Assembly: GCA_963767735.1 (NCBI GenBank)
Contig: CAVYES010000005.1
Coordinates: 384,001-448,000 of the forward strand
DNA from: Candidatus Bathyarchaeota archaeon
GTDB taxonomy: Archaea > Thermoproteota > Bathyarchaeia > Bathyarchaeales > Bathycorpusculaceae
Direction of reading: 5' to 3'
DNA length: 64,000 bases
Shown: in pieces, positions 17 to 48,119 of the stretch
How the letters are laid out: the number at the start of each line of letters is the position of its first letter
How positions within the stretch are numbered: the stretch's first letter is position 1
Program-made: the position numbers and the translations under genes
The notes under the pieces: model-generated
Seen by the model: the letters and a program-made list of their open reading frames with translations, nothing else
Told to the model about the DNA's origin: nothing
Databases searched by the model: none

Positions 17-554
17 ATGCCAACTTTCAGCATAAAAACACCCAGCTTGGAAGATATGGTAAAATTCGGCAAGGCAATTGAGAATGAACAGATTCACGTC
101 TATTATATTCTTGGAGTAGTTAGCGCAATCCGTCCAGAGCACTTATTGAGATTAAGGGTAAAGCTGTTTGACAAAAACAACAACATGATTAATACATGGA
201 TGAAAACTTTCGGCAAAAAAACTTTTTCTTCTCATTCTACACGGCAGAGACTAAAACATTGATTGAGGAATTCATAAGCCATATACCTGATAATCAAGTG
301 CTTTTCCCGATTGGCAAACGCTATATTTGCAAAGAATCGAAAAGGCATCTAACAAAAGCGGTGTTAAAATCGTGCCTAAAATGATGCGTAAATTCACTAC
401 TAACTGGTTTAGAAGGCATGGCATGATTGAGGAAGACGTTAACGTTATTACTGGTCACACTCCGCAATCAATCATAGCTAAATATTACATGGACGTTTCA
501 CGCATTCATGAAGAATATGACCGAGCCACAACAGACTTGAAACTTCTTTCCTAA
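17..554 (+). CDS. Tyrosine recombinase/integrase catalytic (C-terminal) region, split over three frames
   Basis: ORFs 17..262, 196..384 and 327..554 join into one protein with box I Arg (SAIRPEHLLRL) and box II (KMMRK...ITGH...KYY). The first shift lies at an A/T homopolymer, so sequencing error is possible. The 5' part probably lies upstream of the window. Confidence 0.7.
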
Positions 555-4251: not shown

Positions 4252-4351
4252 CGCGTCTGTCTGCGAATATACACCAGGCAAAGCTCGCACAAGATACGAA
4301 GCCCCTTCACTCGCCTTGACCAATAGGCAAGGTTTTTACGTGCTCCTCCAC

Positions 4352-6013
4352 ATGGTAACTCGACGTGCCTTGCCCCAAAAAAACGCACCTTGGTTTAACT
4401 CGTGGCCCACCCAAGTGCCAAAACACATTGAGTTCCCACAGGTTCCTCTCCAAGAAATCCTTCACAAAAGCGCCAATGAATTTCCCCAAAAAACTTCAAT
4501 AGCTTATGGCGGGCGCGAAATCACTTATGCCCAGTTGGAGCTTCTTTCAAGCCAATTCGCTAATTCCCTTGTTAAGTTAGGCGTGAAAAAAGGCGATCGA
4601 GTTGCAATTTTTCTCCCCAATATTCCTCAGTTCATTATTGCCTATTTTGGAACGCTTGGAACAGGAGCGGTTGTAACGGCCATAAGCCCTCTGCATCGAG
4701 AGCGTGAAGTTGAGTATCAACTGAACGATTCAGGCTCGCAAACTATTGTGGCACTGGATTTGCTTTATCCAATTATATCTAAAGTTAAGGGAAAAACTAT
4801 GCTCAAAAACGTTATATTGACAGGCTTAGATGAGTTTTGCTATAAGAAAACCCGTCCTCCAGCAATTCCGAACACTTTTGCTTTTCAGGATTTATTAGAA
4901 AAAAACTCATGTGACTCACTAAACGTGCAGTTGAATCCGCGCGAAGACTTGGCAGTATTGCAGTACACGGGCGGCACCACTGGGATAGCTAAAGGCGCCA
5001 TGCTGACCCACACCAACCTAGTTTCTAACACGTTAGCCTTCGCCGCTTGGATACGGGGCACAACTGCCCAAGAAACCTTCCTGACAGCGCTGCCTCTCTT
5101 CCATATCTACGGCATGACAACAAGCATGACTGTGCCCATTAGCTTAGCGGCAAAAATGGTTCTTACGGCGAAGTTTGAGCCAGCTAAAGCCTTGGAAGCA
5201 ATCCAGACGCATAAGGTAACGGTTTTCTGTGGCGTCCCAACCATGTACTCGGCGCTGCTCTCCAACTCTGATCTCGGGAAATACGATTTAACCTCGATTC
5301 GCGTATGCATATCGGGCGCTTCACCGCTGCCGCCACAAATCCAAAAACAATTCATGCAAGTCACCGGCGGACTTTTGGCTGAAGGCTATGGGTTAACCGA
5401 GGCATCACCCGTTACCCACTGCAACCCCGTCGACAAGACAATGAAAACAGTGAAAGTTGGTTCAATCGGGTTGCCCCTGCCAGACACCGAAGCACGCATT
5501 GTTGATTTAGCGACGGGCGAAAAAACGTTGGCGCAAGGCGGAACTGGCGAGCTTGCCGTGAAAGGGCCACAAGTCATGAAGGGCTACTGGCAAAGACCCA
5601 AAGAAACCGCCGCTGTGCTGCGTGATGGGTGGCTTCTCACAGGCGACATTGCATACATGGACAAAGACGGCTACTTTTACATTACTGACCGCAAAAAAGA
5701 CCTCATAAAATACAAGGACTACAGCGTTTACCCACGCGAGCTCGAAGACATCTTCTACGAGCACCCAGCCATAAAACTCTGCGCAGTCGTCGGCAAACCA
5801 GATCCAGCAGCGGGCGAAGTTCCGAAAGCTTTTATAGTGCTAAAAGAAGGCACGGCTGCATCAGCAGAAGAAATCATGGCTTTCGTCAACAACAAAGTGG
5901 CACCCTACAAGGCAGTCCGCGAGATAGAGTTCAGAGCTGAGTTGCCTATTAGTTCAGCAGGTAAGGTTTTAAGGCGTCTGCTGCAAGAAGAAGAAAAAGA
6001 AAGAGCAAAATAA
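4352..6013 (+). CDS. fadD: Long-chain fatty acid--CoA ligase
   Basis: AMP-binding motifs YTGGTTGIAKG, EGYGLTE, TGD and GKVLR. The ORF track starts at 4316; ATG 4352 is more likely. Confidence 0.9.
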   Translation: MVTRRALPQKNAPWFNSWPTQVPKHIEFPQVPLQEILHKSANEFPQKTSIAYGGREITYAQLELLSSQFANSLVKLGVKKGDRVAIFLPNIPQFIIAYFGTLGTGAVVTAISPLHREREVEYQLNDSGSQTIVALDLLYPIISKVKGKTMLKNVILTGLDEFCYKKTRPPAIPNTFAFQDLLEKNSCDSLNVQLNPREDLAVLQYTGGTTGIAKGAMLTHTNLVSNTLAFAAWIRGTTAQETFLTALPLFHIYGMTTSMTVPISLAAKMVLTAKFEPAKALEAIQTHKVTVFCGVPTMYSALLSNSDLGKYDLTSIRVCISGASPLPPQIQKQFMQVTGGLLAEGYGLTEASPVTHCNPVDKTMKTVKVGSIGLPLPDTEARIVDLATGEKTLAQGGTGELAVKGPQVMKGYWQRPKETAAVLRDGWLLTGDIAYMDKDGYFYITDRKKDLIKYKDYSVYPRELEDIFYEHPAIKLCAVVGKPDPAAGEVPKAFIVLKEGTAASAEEIMAFVNNKVAPYKAVREIEFRAELPISSAGKVLRRLLQEEEKERAK

Positions 6014-6049
6014 GCAGAGCGTAACAGGATTTTGTTTAGTTACTTTCTC

Positions 6050-6124
6050 TTTTCGGTAGCCATAGCTCGGTGGTGCGGTGCCCATAGTAAGGTTATTGGA
6101 GGTCCAAATCCGCCGAAGGCTCCA
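6050..6124 (+). pseudogene. Degenerate tRNA(Thr)-like remnant, left copy
   Basis: ~75 nt with TCGGTAGC at the 5' end, TAGTAAGG in the anticodon region, and a GGTCCAAATCCGCCGAAGGCTCCA 3' end resembling archaeal tRNA-Thr (...GGCT-CCA). Stems are broken. Confidence 0.5.
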
Positions 6125-6194
6125 TCTTCCTCTGTAACAAAAGCTTTCCCTGCTGCAAAAATGCATATATATGCATATGCACATAGAATTGTAT

Positions 6195-6425
6195 ATGACC
6201 AAGGTTATATCCCTCTCCAAAGAAGCATACCAGGTTCTAAAAGAATCAAAAAAACCCGGCGAGTCTTTTTCCGACGTTGTCCTAAGAATCGCAAAAAAGA
6301 AGAAAAAGAAGTCGCTGTTAGAGTTCTCGGGCAAATGGGCTGGCGATGATATTGATGAGGTTTTTGCCCAAGTATTGAAAGATAGAGAGCAAGCAACTTC
6401 TCGGAAGGTAGACTTTGATTCTTGA
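6195..6425 (+). CDS. vapB: VapB-type antitoxin (COG1753/DUF217-like)
   Basis: MTKVISLSKEAYQVLKESKKPGESFSDVVLR signature; overlaps the downstream PIN gene. Confidence 0.85.
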   Translation: MTKVISLSKEAYQVLKESKKPGESFSDVVLRIAKKKKKKSLLEFSGKWAGDDIDEVFAQVLKDREQATSRKVDFDS

Positions 6426-6804
6426 CACGAATGTACTGGTTGCTCTTCTAAAAGGAGAAGCCGACGCAGACAAAGCAATGCAAAACATAGATAAAAACGG
6501 CGAGCGAGCGGCCACCACAATGATTACGGTGTATGAACTTTTGAGGGGAGCATACATCTCTAATGAACTAGAAAAAAATTTGGCTGAGGTCCACGAACTG
6601 TTATCCAACATTGAGGTCTTAGATTTGACGGTGCAGGCATGCGAAGAAGCCTCAAAAATTCACCGCGACCTGAGGAAATCAGGTTACTTGATTGGCGAAT
6701 TCGACGTGCTTATAGCTGCAATCGCACGAGCAAATGCTGAACCAATAATGACGCGAGATGACCATTTCGCTCGCGTACAAGGAATAAACGTGGTTAAATG
6801 GTAG
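6415..6804 (+). CDS. vapC: VapC PIN-domain ribonuclease toxin
   Basis: ILDTNVL, YELLRG, FDVLIAAIA and TRDDHF: the PIN acidic tetrad. Confidence 0.92.
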   Translation: MILDTNVLVALLKGEADADKAMQNIDKNGERAATTMITVYELLRGAYISNELEKNLAEVHELLSNIEVLDLTVQACEEASKIHRDLRKSGYLIGEFDVLIAAIARANAEPIMTRDDHFARVQGINVVKW

Positions 6805-6834
6805 CAGCAAAGTTTTGCTTCAGTAACTAGTAAT

Positions 6835-6866
6835 GGTCGCGGTTCCAAATCCTGCCAAAGGCTCCA
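6835..6866 (+). repeat. Degenerate tRNA(Thr)-like 3' end, right copy (att-like direct repeat)
   Basis: GGTCGCGGTTCCAAATCCTGCCAAAGGCTCCA aligns with 6101..6124. Confidence 0.6.
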
Positions 6867-6944
6867 ATCTACTCTTCTTTTAGCTTTGGGAGTCGAAATG
6901 TATAAGAGAAAATTTATGTTTTGAAATAGCTACGGTTCCTGTCT

Positions 6945-9227
6945 TTGCGCGTAAAAATTAACGTTACAGGTATTGTTCAAGGCGTCGGTTTCCGCCCATT
7001 CATCTACCGCACGGCAGTGCAAAACGGTTTGGCAGGGTACGTTCGCAACCGGGGCGACGCTGGAGTAGAAATTCTCTTGGAAGGAGACGTCCAAGGCATC
7101 CAAAATTTTATGCATGATTTGACGGAGAAGAAGCCGCCCCTAGCGCAAATTGACGCAGTAAAATCAACTGAGCTTTCTGGCAAAAACGAGTATGACGAAT
7201 TTACGATTTACAAAAGTTCCCAAGAAATGGAGCTTTCAGGCTCAATTATACCTCCAGACATTGCCATATGCGACGAGTGCCTAGCGGAGTTGCGTGACCC
7301 AAAAAACCCACGCTACGAATACTTCTTTATCACCTGCACCAATTGCGGCCCCCGCTTCACAATCATCGAGCGGTTGCCCTACGACCGAGAAAACACCACC
7401 ATGCGCGAGTTTCCACTATGCGGTTTTTGCCTAAAAGAATATGAGGATCCAGCAAACAGGCGTTTTCACGCGCAAACCGTTGCTTGCCCAACCTGCGGTC
7501 CAAAAGCTTACTTAACAACAAAAACGGGCGAACCAATCAAAGCCAAAGACCCGGTACATGAGGCGGGAAAACTACTGTCCGAAGGCAACGTGCTTGCAAT
7601 AAAGGGGTATGGCGGCTTCCACATTGCAGCCTCAACCATGCAAGAGAAGCCTTTGGAGGTGCTTCGAGCAACGAAGCATAGGCGCGAAAAACCCTTCGCC
7701 ATCATGGCAAAAAGCCTGGAGGCGGCTAAAAGCTTCGCCGAAGTAAGTTCGAAGGAGCAAGAACTGCTCTCTTCCCCACAAAGCCCAATAGTGCTGCTAA
7801 GCAAAAACCGCCGCTACAATCTTTCCCCTCTGGTTGCGCCGAACTTGCACAACGTCGGCGTCATGCTGCCCTACACTGGCTTGCACTACATGCTTTTCGA
7901 CCAAGTTGATGACTTATCGTTTGTGATGACCAGCGCTAACCCGCCGAACCAACCTATCGTGAAAGACAACAATGAAGCACTCAACACGCTGGGTGGCACC
8001 GTGGATTATTTTTTGTTTCATAACCGCAACATAGCCCATCGATGCGACGACTCAGTGATGCGTGCTCATGGGGGTCGTCAAGTGTTTCTTAGGCGAAGCC
8101 GAGGTTACGCTCCAGCGCCGGTCAGGCTTAAAGCTAAAGCGAAACGGTGCGTTGTCGGTTTAGGGGGCGAACTAAACAACACCGCTTGCGTGTTGCTTGA
8201 CGATAAAGCCTTCATCAGCCAACACATCGGCGATGTGGAAAACGTGGAAACCCGCGCGTTTCTTTTGGAAGCCACAAATCACCTCTACCAGCTAACCAAC
8301 TGCCACGCTGAAACCGTAGTTTGCGATTTGCACCCTAAATTCACCACAACTGCTTTAGCCCAGGAATTGGCGGAAGCGGATGGTTCAGCGCTGATTCAGG
8401 TGCAGCATCACCATGCGCACGCGGCTGGTTTAATGGCTGAACACGATGCGGAAGAGGCTGTCACTGTTGTTTGCGACGGCTATGGCTATGGAACTGACGG
8501 CGGGGCTTGGGGCGGCGAGGTCCTGTTTTGCACTCGTGAGTCGGCTGAGTTTAAGCGGCTTGGGCATCTGGAACCTCAACCGTTGCTCGGAGGAGATGTG
8601 GCTAGCCGTTACCCTTTGCGTCTAGCTGCTGGAATGCTCGCTAAAGCAGGCGTGGCGGTTGAGCCTTGGCTGAAGCAGAACAGTGCGCATTTGCCTTTCG
8701 GAGAAACAGAAGCCAACCTCATTCTAAGCCAACTTGCAAAAGGCATCGGAACGGTTCAAACTACAAGTTGCGGCAGAGTATTGGACGCAGTCTCAGCTGT
8801 TTTAGGCGTATGTTATGAGCGCACCTATGAGGGGGAACCAGCCATGAAACTGGAATCAGCCGCAATAGCGGGCAAAGATGTTTTGAACATAGCGCCCATC
8901 CTGGATGGCGACACGCTGGACACGGCGGTCTTGCTGAGGTTAATTTTTGAAAACAAACAAAAATTATCCGTTGGCGATTTAGCTTATTCTGCGCATGCTT
9001 ACTTGGCAAAAGGTCTAGGCTCCATAGCGGTAGCAAAAGCTTCAGCGCTTGGCGTTAGCGACGTTGGGTTTTCGGGGGGTGCTGCCTGCAACCAGATACT
9101 TGCAACAGTCATGCGCGAAGCCGTTGAGGCGGCGGGGCTGCGGTTTCTAGTTCATGAGGCTGTTCCCGCTGGGGATGGGGGCGTTTCGTTTGGTCAGGCA
9201 GTTGTAGGTGGGTTTTCTCGGTTTTAG
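6945..9227 (+). CDS. hypF: Carbamoyltransferase HypF
   Basis: Acylphosphatase domain (GIVQGVGFRPF), Zn fingers, QHHHAH and GDGGVSFGQ. Confidence 0.97.
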   Translation: MRVKINVTGIVQGVGFRPFIYRTAVQNGLAGYVRNRGDAGVEILLEGDVQGIQNFMHDLTEKKPPLAQIDAVKSTELSGKNEYDEFTIYKSSQEMELSGSIIPPDIAICDECLAELRDPKNPRYEYFFITCTNCGPRFTIIERLPYDRENTTMREFPLCGFCLKEYEDPANRRFHAQTVACPTCGPKAYLTTKTGEPIKAKDPVHEAGKLLSEGNVLAIKGYGGFHIAASTMQEKPLEVLRATKHRREKPFAIMAKSLEAAKSFAEVSSKEQELLSSPQSPIVLLSKNRRYNLSPLVAPNLHNVGVMLPYTGLHYMLFDQVDDLSFVMTSANPPNQPIVKDNNEALNTLGGTVDYFLFHNRNIAHRCDDSVMRAHGGRQVFLRRSRGYAPAPVRLKAKAKRCVVGLGGELNNTACVLLDDKAFISQHIGDVENVETRAFLLEATNHLYQLTNCHAETVVCDLHPKFTTTALAQELAEADGSALIQVQHHHAHAAGLMAEHDAEEAVTVVCDGYGYGTDGGAWGGEVLFCTRESAEFKRLGHLEPQPLLGGDVASRYPLRLAAGMLAKAGVAVEPWLKQNSAHLPFGETEANLILSQLAKGIGTVQTTSCGRVLDAVSAVLGVCYERTYEGEPAMKLESAAIAGKDVLNIAPILDGDTLDTAVLLRLIFENKQKLSVGDLAYSAHAYLAKGLGSIAVAKASALGVSDVGFSGGAACNQILATVMREAVEAAGLRFLVHEAVPAGDGGVSFGQAVVGGFSRF

Positions 9228-47806: not shown

Positions 47807-48046
47807 CTAATTCATCACTATGTATCCGTATGAGCTTTTACTAGGCTGAAGAAAAAATCGATTTATACATGTTTGCTTTTTCGAGAGGCAAAATGCAGTT
47901 TTCAGTCCAAAGCGGTTTTTCCAAGTCAGTGCTTTGTTCAAAGAATCTTATTTTCTTATCATAACTTTTAGCTGATAGTTTCAGGTTTATTAGATTCCAC
48001 TAAGCGCTAATGATTTTTTCATTAACTTTACTACAAGAGATTTTAG

Positions 48047-48119
48047 TAGCCCGGGAGAGATTCGGACTCTCGTCGGCGGGTCCAAAGCCCGCTATGCTTG
48101 ACCACTACACCACCGGGCT
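48047..48119 (-). tRNA. tRNA-Gln (TTG)
   Basis: AGCCCGG acceptor with A1-U72, anticodon arm GCGGG-CTTTGGA-CCCGC, T-arm GAGAG-TCCGAAT-CTCTC; no intron. Confidence 0.93.

Follow-up and report, generated by a model that had tools for sequence, protein, structure and literature searches.

A vapBC pair between decayed tRNA-Thr copies in a Bathyarchaeia genome: a probable fossil of a small cassette moved in trans

Toxin-antitoxin (TA) pairs carry no mobility genes of their own, and how they move between genomes is an old question. It is raised in concrete form by a 64,000-nucleotide stretch of a Candidatus Bathyarchaeota archaeon genome (the window, C5:384001-448000; the genome, G000, comprises 3.04 Mb in 10 contigs), in which a vapBC pair stands between two direct repeats that look like the end of a tRNA gene. 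Did the pair arrive as a mobile unit, and if so, by whose recombinase? Our analysis showed that the repeats derive from tRNA-Thr(GGT) and that the unit is found again, its boundaries unchanged, at other loci and in rows with other TA cassettes. We consider it probable that the window vapBC is the fossil of an integrase-less cassette of about 0.7 kb, similar to a cis-mobilizable element (CIME), with attachment sites (att) taken from tRNA-Thr(GGT), and that it belongs to a family of one Bathyarchaeia genus once moved in trans by a tyrosine integrase. Genomes, contigs and loci are cited below by our own labels, beginning with G, C and L.

Two worn copies of tRNA-Thr(GGT) around vapBC

An earlier note on this DNA, made from the letters alone, had placed a tRNA-Thr-like string on each side of vapBC, and both strings were found as exact matches at C5:390101-390124 and C5:390835-390866 (window 6101-6124 and 6835-6866). 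ARAGORN calls three tRNA-Thr genes in G000, and only tRNA-Thr(GGT), at C5:215938-216014, matches the repeats, which bears out the suspected likeness to the organism's own tRNA-Thr. The right copy is identical to positions 41-77 of this gene at 34 of 37 bases; it was found with an E-value of 5e-8 when all tRNAs were searched against the whole genome, and chance is therefore excluded. A degenerate pattern based on the repeats would be expected 0.02 times in the window by chance. At its 3′ end the left copy agrees with the tRNA at 24 of 25 positions with one gap, and it does extend to tRNA length as described, aligning in whole with positions 7-77 at 78% identity over 73 columns (E-value 3e-8, and 7e-7 in a second search); its start near 6050 was set by homology with the related genome G004. 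Direct repeats from the 3′ part of the tRNA are present at both cassette ends.

Neither copy is predicted to be a functional tRNA gene. Acceptor and T stems are broken by changes in both, and the left acceptor stem has Watson-Crick pairs at 2 of its 7 positions, plus two G-U pairs. ARAGORN, run over the whole window, called only a tRNA-Gln (48046-48119) and neither of the copies, and a search of positions 5900-7000 against Rfam at E ≤ 10 gave no tRNA match, only chance-level rows for microRNAs and small RNAs. An intact target tRNA is not found at either end of the window cassette, the left copy being both broken and chimeric (see below). The interval between the copies holds no integrase gene; it consists of vapB and vapC, and no further open reading frame (ORF) in it has a family match. 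The description of vapBC between worn tRNA-Thr copies is confirmed.

The pair has the features of a type II TA system, namely a PIN-domain toxin and a small antitoxin gene directly upstream that overlaps it by 11 nt, and the window vapC is the best PIN match in the genome. Its translation has acidic residues at D4, E41, D97 and D115/116, which we take to be the catalytic positions. The conserved start codon of vapB was placed from cassette alignments, the listed ORF beginning further upstream at 6171. Both genes are intact and full-length in G000 despite the decay of the repeats. Upstream of vapB lies a 25-nt element, AATGCATATATATGCATATGCACAT, with a TATA-like core, rich in A and T, about 25 nt 5′ of the vapB ATG and a 16-bp perfect palindrome, ATGCATATATATGCAT. 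The element is identical in six of seven aligned cassettes (in G046 two adjacent bases differ), at an overall cassette identity of 68%, and it shows no differences among G000, G004 and G018. It is likely to be a VapB operator superimposed on the archaeal TATA box of vapB, whose transcript would be leaderless. The features of the locus are collected in Table 1.

Table 1. The vapBC locus and its neighbours, in window coordinates
Feature	Position	Strand	Evidence
fadD-like acyl-CoA synthetase (AMP-binding) gene, left flank, outside the cassette	4316..6013	+	PF00501 (E 9.4e-99), PF13193
Left copy: decayed, nearly full-length tRNA-Thr(GGT) copy, read as attL-type joint	6050..6124	+	tRNA homology
Promoter/operator-like element AATGCATATATATGCATATGCACAT	6160..6184		conserved across cassettes; function inferred
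vapB antitoxin gene	6195..6425	+	PF02697 (E 1.8e-16)
vapC PIN-domain toxin gene, 129 aa	6415..6804	+	PF01850 (E 9.7e-24), profile positions 1-118 of 120
Right copy: tRNA-Thr(GGT) positions 41-77, three substitutions, read as attR-type joint	6830..6866	+	
hypF carbamoyltransferase gene, right flank, outside the cassette	6945..9227	+	HypF domain set

Recurrence of the cassette and the integrase at tRNA-Thr(GGT)

The same unit was found in other genomes of the genus, and our cassette alignment joins G000 with G004, G013, G022, G019, G009 and G046. In G004 the cassette occupies the site between fadD and hypF, as in G000, and G022 and G009 have att, vapBC and att. More elaborate orders are found in G013 (tRNA, 2.4 kb of sequence, att, vapBC, att), G046 (tRNA, hicAB, att, vapBC, att, hypF) and G019 (integrase, att, vapBC, att, MNT-HepT, att). 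In the alignment of the seven cassettes, similarity opens at the left att and closes at the right att, the flanks being unrelated, and the spacers between att and genes are short and similar. The direction of the genes relative to att is also constant within a family, vapBC being sense in 7 of 7 cases and hicAB antisense in 6 of 6.

A metagenome scan with a pattern made of the att end plus the operator returned 10 contigs, all with a vapBC homologue, as is largely forced by the pattern; the right att copy is present in nine of them, the left being required by the search. The pair lies directly 3′ of a full tRNA-Thr in three of the ten, and in three the cassette stands upstream of hypF. An intact target tRNA is found at the homologous cassettes of G013, G046, L047, L050 and L054, and tandem arrangements with integrase elements in G019, L048 and G013. 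A search for related loci with VapC over genome contigs confirmed only one locus.

We took a census of every segment of at most 1.1 kb between two identifiable tRNA-Thr/att copies in the genus sample (n = 15), and 14 of the 15 carry genes of TA families. Seven hold vapBC (the genomes of the alignment, G004 and part of G013 being assigned by nucleotide homology alone), one MNT-HepT (G019), three a HicB-like gene or hicAB (G046, G002 and G068), and one each MNT plus hicAB (G052), a PIN gene (G050) and MNT (G063); some of the HicB matches fall just below the Pfam cut-off and are backed by 73-81% nucleotide identity to the hicAB of G000. The exception, in G055, has a zinc-ribbon ORF only. Larger att-bounded inserts range from 1.8 to 25 kb, and among those examined, G057 has an integrase, G010 metabolic genes and G075 a mixed cargo. 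We also observed a hicAB pair between two full-length copies of a second allele of tRNA-Thr(GGT), type 2 (L033, G068:C1:2554500-2555800). The att of this hicAB family may be an entire tRNA gene, and the target would then be repaired wherever the crossover takes place.

An integrase that uses the same site is found in G000 itself. On the 3′ side of the real tRNA-Thr(GGT) gene lies a 6.2-kb insert closed by a perfect 46-nt copy of tRNA positions 32-77, and a gene for a Phage_integr_3-type integrase (C5:209817-210638, L001:2818-3639) adjoins this repeat; the element additionally encodes Alba, HTH_45 and DUF5752. Over 274 aligned residues the integrase shares 86% identity with a protein of G019 that is intact and 280 aa long, and it has two in-frame stops where the homologue has W and E. 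To judge from its reading frame, the cognate integrase of G000 is a pseudogene, and it is the nearest one to the window cassette, at a distance of 180 kb. An integrase gene likewise abuts the arrays in G019 and L048. ORFs touching att had suggested a self-splitting integrase of the SSV type, which we rejected because the ORF is complete beside att, starting about 20 nt from it and aligning over its full length with the 280-aa protein of G019. A 158-aa ORF of G019, taken for the N-terminal part of such an integrase, encodes a membrane protein that is unrelated to it and has homologues in other places. In a sample of 60 genomes of the genus plus G000, the 77-nt tRNA-Thr(GGT) is full-length in most and 100% identical in about 40; many genomes of the sample have extra tRNA copies (positions 27/31/33-77) at distances of 0.5 to 25 kb. 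The exact 32-nt att had 0 matches in viral contigs.

At the start of the window (330-515, plus strand) an 86-aa open frame encodes another Phage_integr_3-type integrase fragment (E 3e-5), and about 0.8 kb upstream of it lies a tRNA-Met(CAT)-like gene, apparently with two introns (C5:383415-383540, just outside the window). This fragment is probably what is left of another decayed integrated element.

Other tRNA genes of G000 bound TA pairs as well. Behind the intact tRNA-Pro(CGG) gene (C7:67829-67903) is a 786-bp insert whose only genes are those of a 78-aa antitoxin of the ribbon-helix-helix (RHH) type and a 134-aa PIN toxin. It ends in a perfect 44-nt repeat that spans the tRNA sequence from anticodon loop to CCA, and behind tRNA-Pro(TGG) stands a 79% identical paralogue of this cassette whose repeat has decayed. 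On C8, a tRNA-Thr fragment stands on one side of hicAB and an inverted tRNA-Ser fragment on the other, the tRNA-Ser fragment being followed by a mazEF-like pair. Two tRNA-Ala fragments enclose MNT-HepT at C5:107.8-108.7 kb, with a Phage_integrase gene adjoining. A tRNA-Ser gene on C3 is followed by a ParE-family pair, an IS200-type gene and then a 20-nt repeat. The earlier note had suggested looking for the motif beside other TA genes, and tRNA fragments are indeed enriched there. We compared 50 toxin-family loci (31 PIN, 5 HicA, 6 HepT, 3 PemK and 5 ParE) with a list of tRNA fragments made of merged search rows, minus one tRNA gene called by ARAGORN and plus the left copy; counted singly, 9 of 23 fragments have a toxin-family gene at a distance of up to 1 kb, where 0.77 would be expected, and 0 of 5000 random placements reach this number. 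For tRNA genes the count is 7 of 45 against 1.52 expected, reached in 4 of 5000 placements. As a side observation, an island at C6:342000-350200 (L005) combines five PIN genes with a toxin gene each of the PemK and ParE types, together with an internal fragment of tRNA-Cys (C6:343100-343136), and a second tRNA-Cys fragment lies at C6:359702-359747.

These results bear on two other explanations of the repeats. The first, offered in the earlier note as its alternative, is that the two copies are transcribed decoys that mimic tRNA-Thr and titrate or regulate a tRNA-cleaving VapC. Some VapC toxins do cleave tRNAs, and the right copy begins 26 nt 3′ of the vapC stop, where it could lie within the 3′ untranslated region. 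The idea is hardly credible all the same: tRNA-Thr repeats also flank hicAB and MNT-HepT, whose toxins are unrelated, while another vapBC cassette has tRNA-Pro repeats; the left copy stands upstream of the promoter-like element; the stems of both copies are broken and no tRNA model matches them; and similarity between loci ends exactly at the repeats, as in recombination joints.

The second is that an integrase-bearing element at a tRNA-Thr copy eroded down to an addictive vapBC, so that a mini-cassette never moved. Passages of a review of archaeal tyrosine recombinases describe tandem integrations and presume that integrase-less elements are decay products arising by loss of the integrase gene, with no mention of toxins there (PMC8371274). 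The integrase of the tRNA-Thr element in G000 is itself decaying, and the resistance of TA pairs to loss could explain their survival in 14 of the 15 small segments. We nevertheless regard this explanation as unlikely. Seven cassettes have the same boundaries and similar short spacers in differing flanks, and shared boundaries argue against repeated independent decay. In the rows (att, vapBC, att, MNT-HepT, att; and tRNA, hicAB, att, vapBC, att) every cassette would require a precise reduction of its own, perfect repeats enclose just 786 bp at tRNA-Pro(CGG), and two cassette clades occupy one site in sister species (see below). No intermediate forms between an autonomous element and a cassette were found, and a single ancestral reduction followed by spread would be the mobile-cassette model itself.

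Exchange at the fadD-hypF site

The reading in the earlier note would have been refuted by a lack of empty sites in relatives, and relatives with a cassette-free fadD-hypF site were found. In 19 of 24 genomes of the same genus fadD lies next to hypF on a single contig, and the region upstream of hypF is conserved among relatives from about position 6893. Besides G000, only G004 and G018 have a vapBC insert at this site, which is free of the cassette in most relatives. Seven of the intergenic regions, 290-385 bp long, were read and contain no tRNA-like sequence. By eye, the cassette-free regions share a minus-strand stretch, with a hydrophobic ORF of about 70 codons in G023 and G007, and in G016 the site measures only 42 bp. 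Other cargo was observed here as well: G003 has a 490-aa AAA_15/AAA_21 ATPase and a duplicated 3′ fragment of fadD (L044, G003:C1:1669500-1674200), with no tRNA fragments around, and in G005 the site holds an antitoxin of the AbrB type paired with a PIN-like toxin (L025), of which the antitoxin alone remains in G018.

Two alleles of tRNA-Thr(GGT) occur in the genus, type 1 with the acceptor strands GCCTTCG...CGAAGGC (G000 and most genomes) and type 2 with GCCTCGG...C(C/T)CGAGGC (G046 and G068). The left copy of G004 is 97% identical to the tRNA and combines a type-2 5′ strand, ACCTCGG, with a type-1 3′ strand, CGAAGGC. That of G000 is its decayed equivalent, with TTTTCGG (from the type-2 GCCTCGG) at the 5′ end and the type-1 CGAAGGC-T-CCA at the 3′ end. 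By these bases the left copy is chimeric, combining two tRNA-Thr alleles in the way that a recombination joint would. Directly upstream of hypF, with cassettes in between, stands a type-2 tRNA-Thr in G046 and in two metagenome contigs, and there the att that follows hicAB ends in type 1.

The vapBC sequences also tell of exchange. Their tree has two clades, each with 100/100 support, one grouping G000 with G046, G013 and G022, and the other grouping G004 and G018, from the fadD-hypF site, with G019 and G009. The vapBC genes of G000 and G004 are 60% identical in nucleotide sequence while their flanks are 84-87% identical, and the flanks of G004 and G018 are the closest to those of G000; the cassette at fadD-hypF has therefore been exchanged at least once. 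In the metagenome contig L056 (892-2422), fadD and vapBC are 96% and 98% identical to G000 and hypF only 83%, which places a predicted recombination break at or adjoining the right repeat.

The break in L056 resembles homologous exchange, and we considered whether the repeats might be scars left by old integrations, the host alone now exchanging, deleting or copying cassettes between arrays by homologous recombination in the flanking genes or in the repeats of 40-77 nt. The repeats are of sufficient length for this, and module exchange between tandem elements by this route is mentioned in passages of the archaeal review (PMC8371274). Such shuffling is very unlikely to be the whole explanation, as it leaves unexplained the first arrival at the tRNA, the fixed orientation of each family and the duplications of att, and integrase genes abut the arrays in G019, L048 and the tRNA-Thr element of G000. 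Homologous recombination between att copies may still play a part.

Proposed mobilisation in trans and its known relatives

On integration, tyrosine integrases leave two copies of the att segment that element and target share, and we infer mobilisation in trans from the architecture described above. The cassette unit would be made up of vapB, vapC and a promoter/operator of its own, with a copy of the tRNA-Thr(GGT) 3′ part at each end, and these copies would be the att sites of a tyrosine integrase from larger elements that use the same tRNA gene. As a circle with one att, the cassette would enter or leave the tRNA-Thr gene, or an existing att copy, through an integrase that a neighbouring or co-resident element provides in trans, and the addictive TA pair would favour keeping the inserted cassette. 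At the window locus, a second tRNA-Thr copy upstream of hypF would have been broken by a cassette whose att came from a foreign allele, leaving the acceptor stem mismatched. This copy, now useless, would then have decayed into the left repeat while the gene at C5:215938 serves the cell. The system in G000 looks frozen, its att copies mutated, its integrase dead and its vapBC intact.

Several observations weigh against this account. The arrival at fadD-hypF was not a clean insertion, as the small minus-strand gene of about 70 codons is gone relative to cassette-free relatives; by this comparison the insert replaced a small gene rather than simply adding to the site. The AbrB-PIN pair region of G005 and G018 has no tRNA fragments around it. 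The allele call for the left copy rests on two to three diagnostic bases per side, clear in G004 and weaker in G000, and both the left and the right copy have type-1 3′ ends, which a single integration does not predict, so at least two events are needed. A tRNA-Thr copy would also have to have been present upstream of hypF in the lineage in the past. Most homologous vapBC cassettes stand in arrays at, or probably at, one locus, tRNA-Thr, and part of their spread could therefore be vertical inheritance. In the enrichment count, the nine fragments correspond to seven distinct loci, or six without the window, whose left and right copies are two of the nine; two fragment pairs flank one cassette each, and one counted fragment (C6:387470-387580) may be an unannotated, intron-bearing tRNA gene. 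Finally, no excision product, circle or empty-site read was seen. Twenty public runs, all available as Logan contigs, contain at most 0.37 of the sampled words. The comparison covered the contigs of runs X1-X4 at the tRNA-Pro cassette locus, chosen for its perfect repeats; these contigs are short, stop at the repeats, show no joints and have some unassigned loose ends, and they are neutral on excision.

A broader reading takes the cassette families of G000 and its relatives together, and we consider it about equally likely to be right or wrong. At least four families (VapBC, RHH-PIN, HicAB and MNT-HepT) would be minimal circularisable cassettes, each with one att, a promoter and two genes. As parasites of the integrases that larger elements encode, they would dock at tRNA genes and form an archaeal counterpart, based on tRNA, of integron arrays. 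They would cross between species, as the chimeric tRNA alleles suggest, kill or repair the target tRNA according to the att allele, and seed secondary docking sites at a distance from the functional tRNA.

How far does the likeness to integrons go? In Vibrio superintegrons, small cassettes stand in rows between recombination sites and are served by one integrase in trans, and TA cassettes stabilise the array. The cassettes described here are likewise small, of a single function and arranged in rows with recombination sites between them. They differ in having no IntI, no attI and no hairpin attC, their sites being att copies that derive from a tRNA and are double-stranded; a promoter-like element comes with every cassette, a tRNA gene serves as the platform, and the integrase, of the Phage_integr_3 type, resides in a separate element. 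The earlier note had proposed a TA cassette mobilised in trans through tRNA-derived sites by an integron-like system. That interpretation is supported, none of the three refuting conditions named in the note being borne out. Movement in trans is our reading of the architecture, and tandem accretion of the CIME type at a tRNA gene is a nearer match for the system than an integron would be.

Integrated elements at archaeal tRNA genes are also among the closest known systems, and their effect has reportedly been termed 'gene capture' by She et al. They share with our system a Phage_integr_3 tyrosine integrase, att sites made of the 3′ part of a tRNA, tandem integrations and the frequent presence of vapBC in inserts at tRNA genes. 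The cassettes described here differ from them in having no integrase and a size of about 0.7 kb, and the associated integrase is not of the self-splitting SSV kind. In Thaumarchaeota, the smallest cryptic integrated element given in passages of one survey is 2.6 kb long and has an integrase (PMC6563490). For Sulfolobus, part of one study places vapBC inside tRNA inserts and, in Sulfolobus islandicus, ascribes its mobility to flanking copies of insertion sequences (PMC3718332).

CIMEs offer the closest parallel. In the Streptococcus ICESt1/ICESt3 family they are described, in passages of one account, as keeping attL and attR after their integration and transfer genes have gone, and as growing by accretion, new arrivals integrating into an att copy at the tRNA 3′ end and building arrays with integrase-bearing elements (PMC5704250). 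The window cassette likewise keeps attL and attR and has no integration or transfer genes. It differs in its archaeal host, in the far smaller size of the units (0.5-1 kb) and in a cargo that is almost always one TA pair with its own operator, in families that recur across species. The definition of a CIME also implies decay of an autonomous element. No conjugative partner is evident here. In the open-access literature searched, we found no account of att-bounded cassettes in archaea that carry TA pairs only. Particular to this system are the near-exclusive TA cargo, the arrays and the chimeric tRNA joint.

For TA pairs that lack mobility genes, the vehicle can here be read from the sequence, as a tRNA-derived att on each side that is held in common with integrase-bearing elements. 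A family of such cassettes in related archaea, sometimes in rows, suggests how these gene pairs spread, and the cassette model accounts for the fragments of tRNA scattered over these genomes and for their broken tRNA copies. Small natural att cassettes would also be a possible genetic tool for an uncultured and globally abundant archaeal class.

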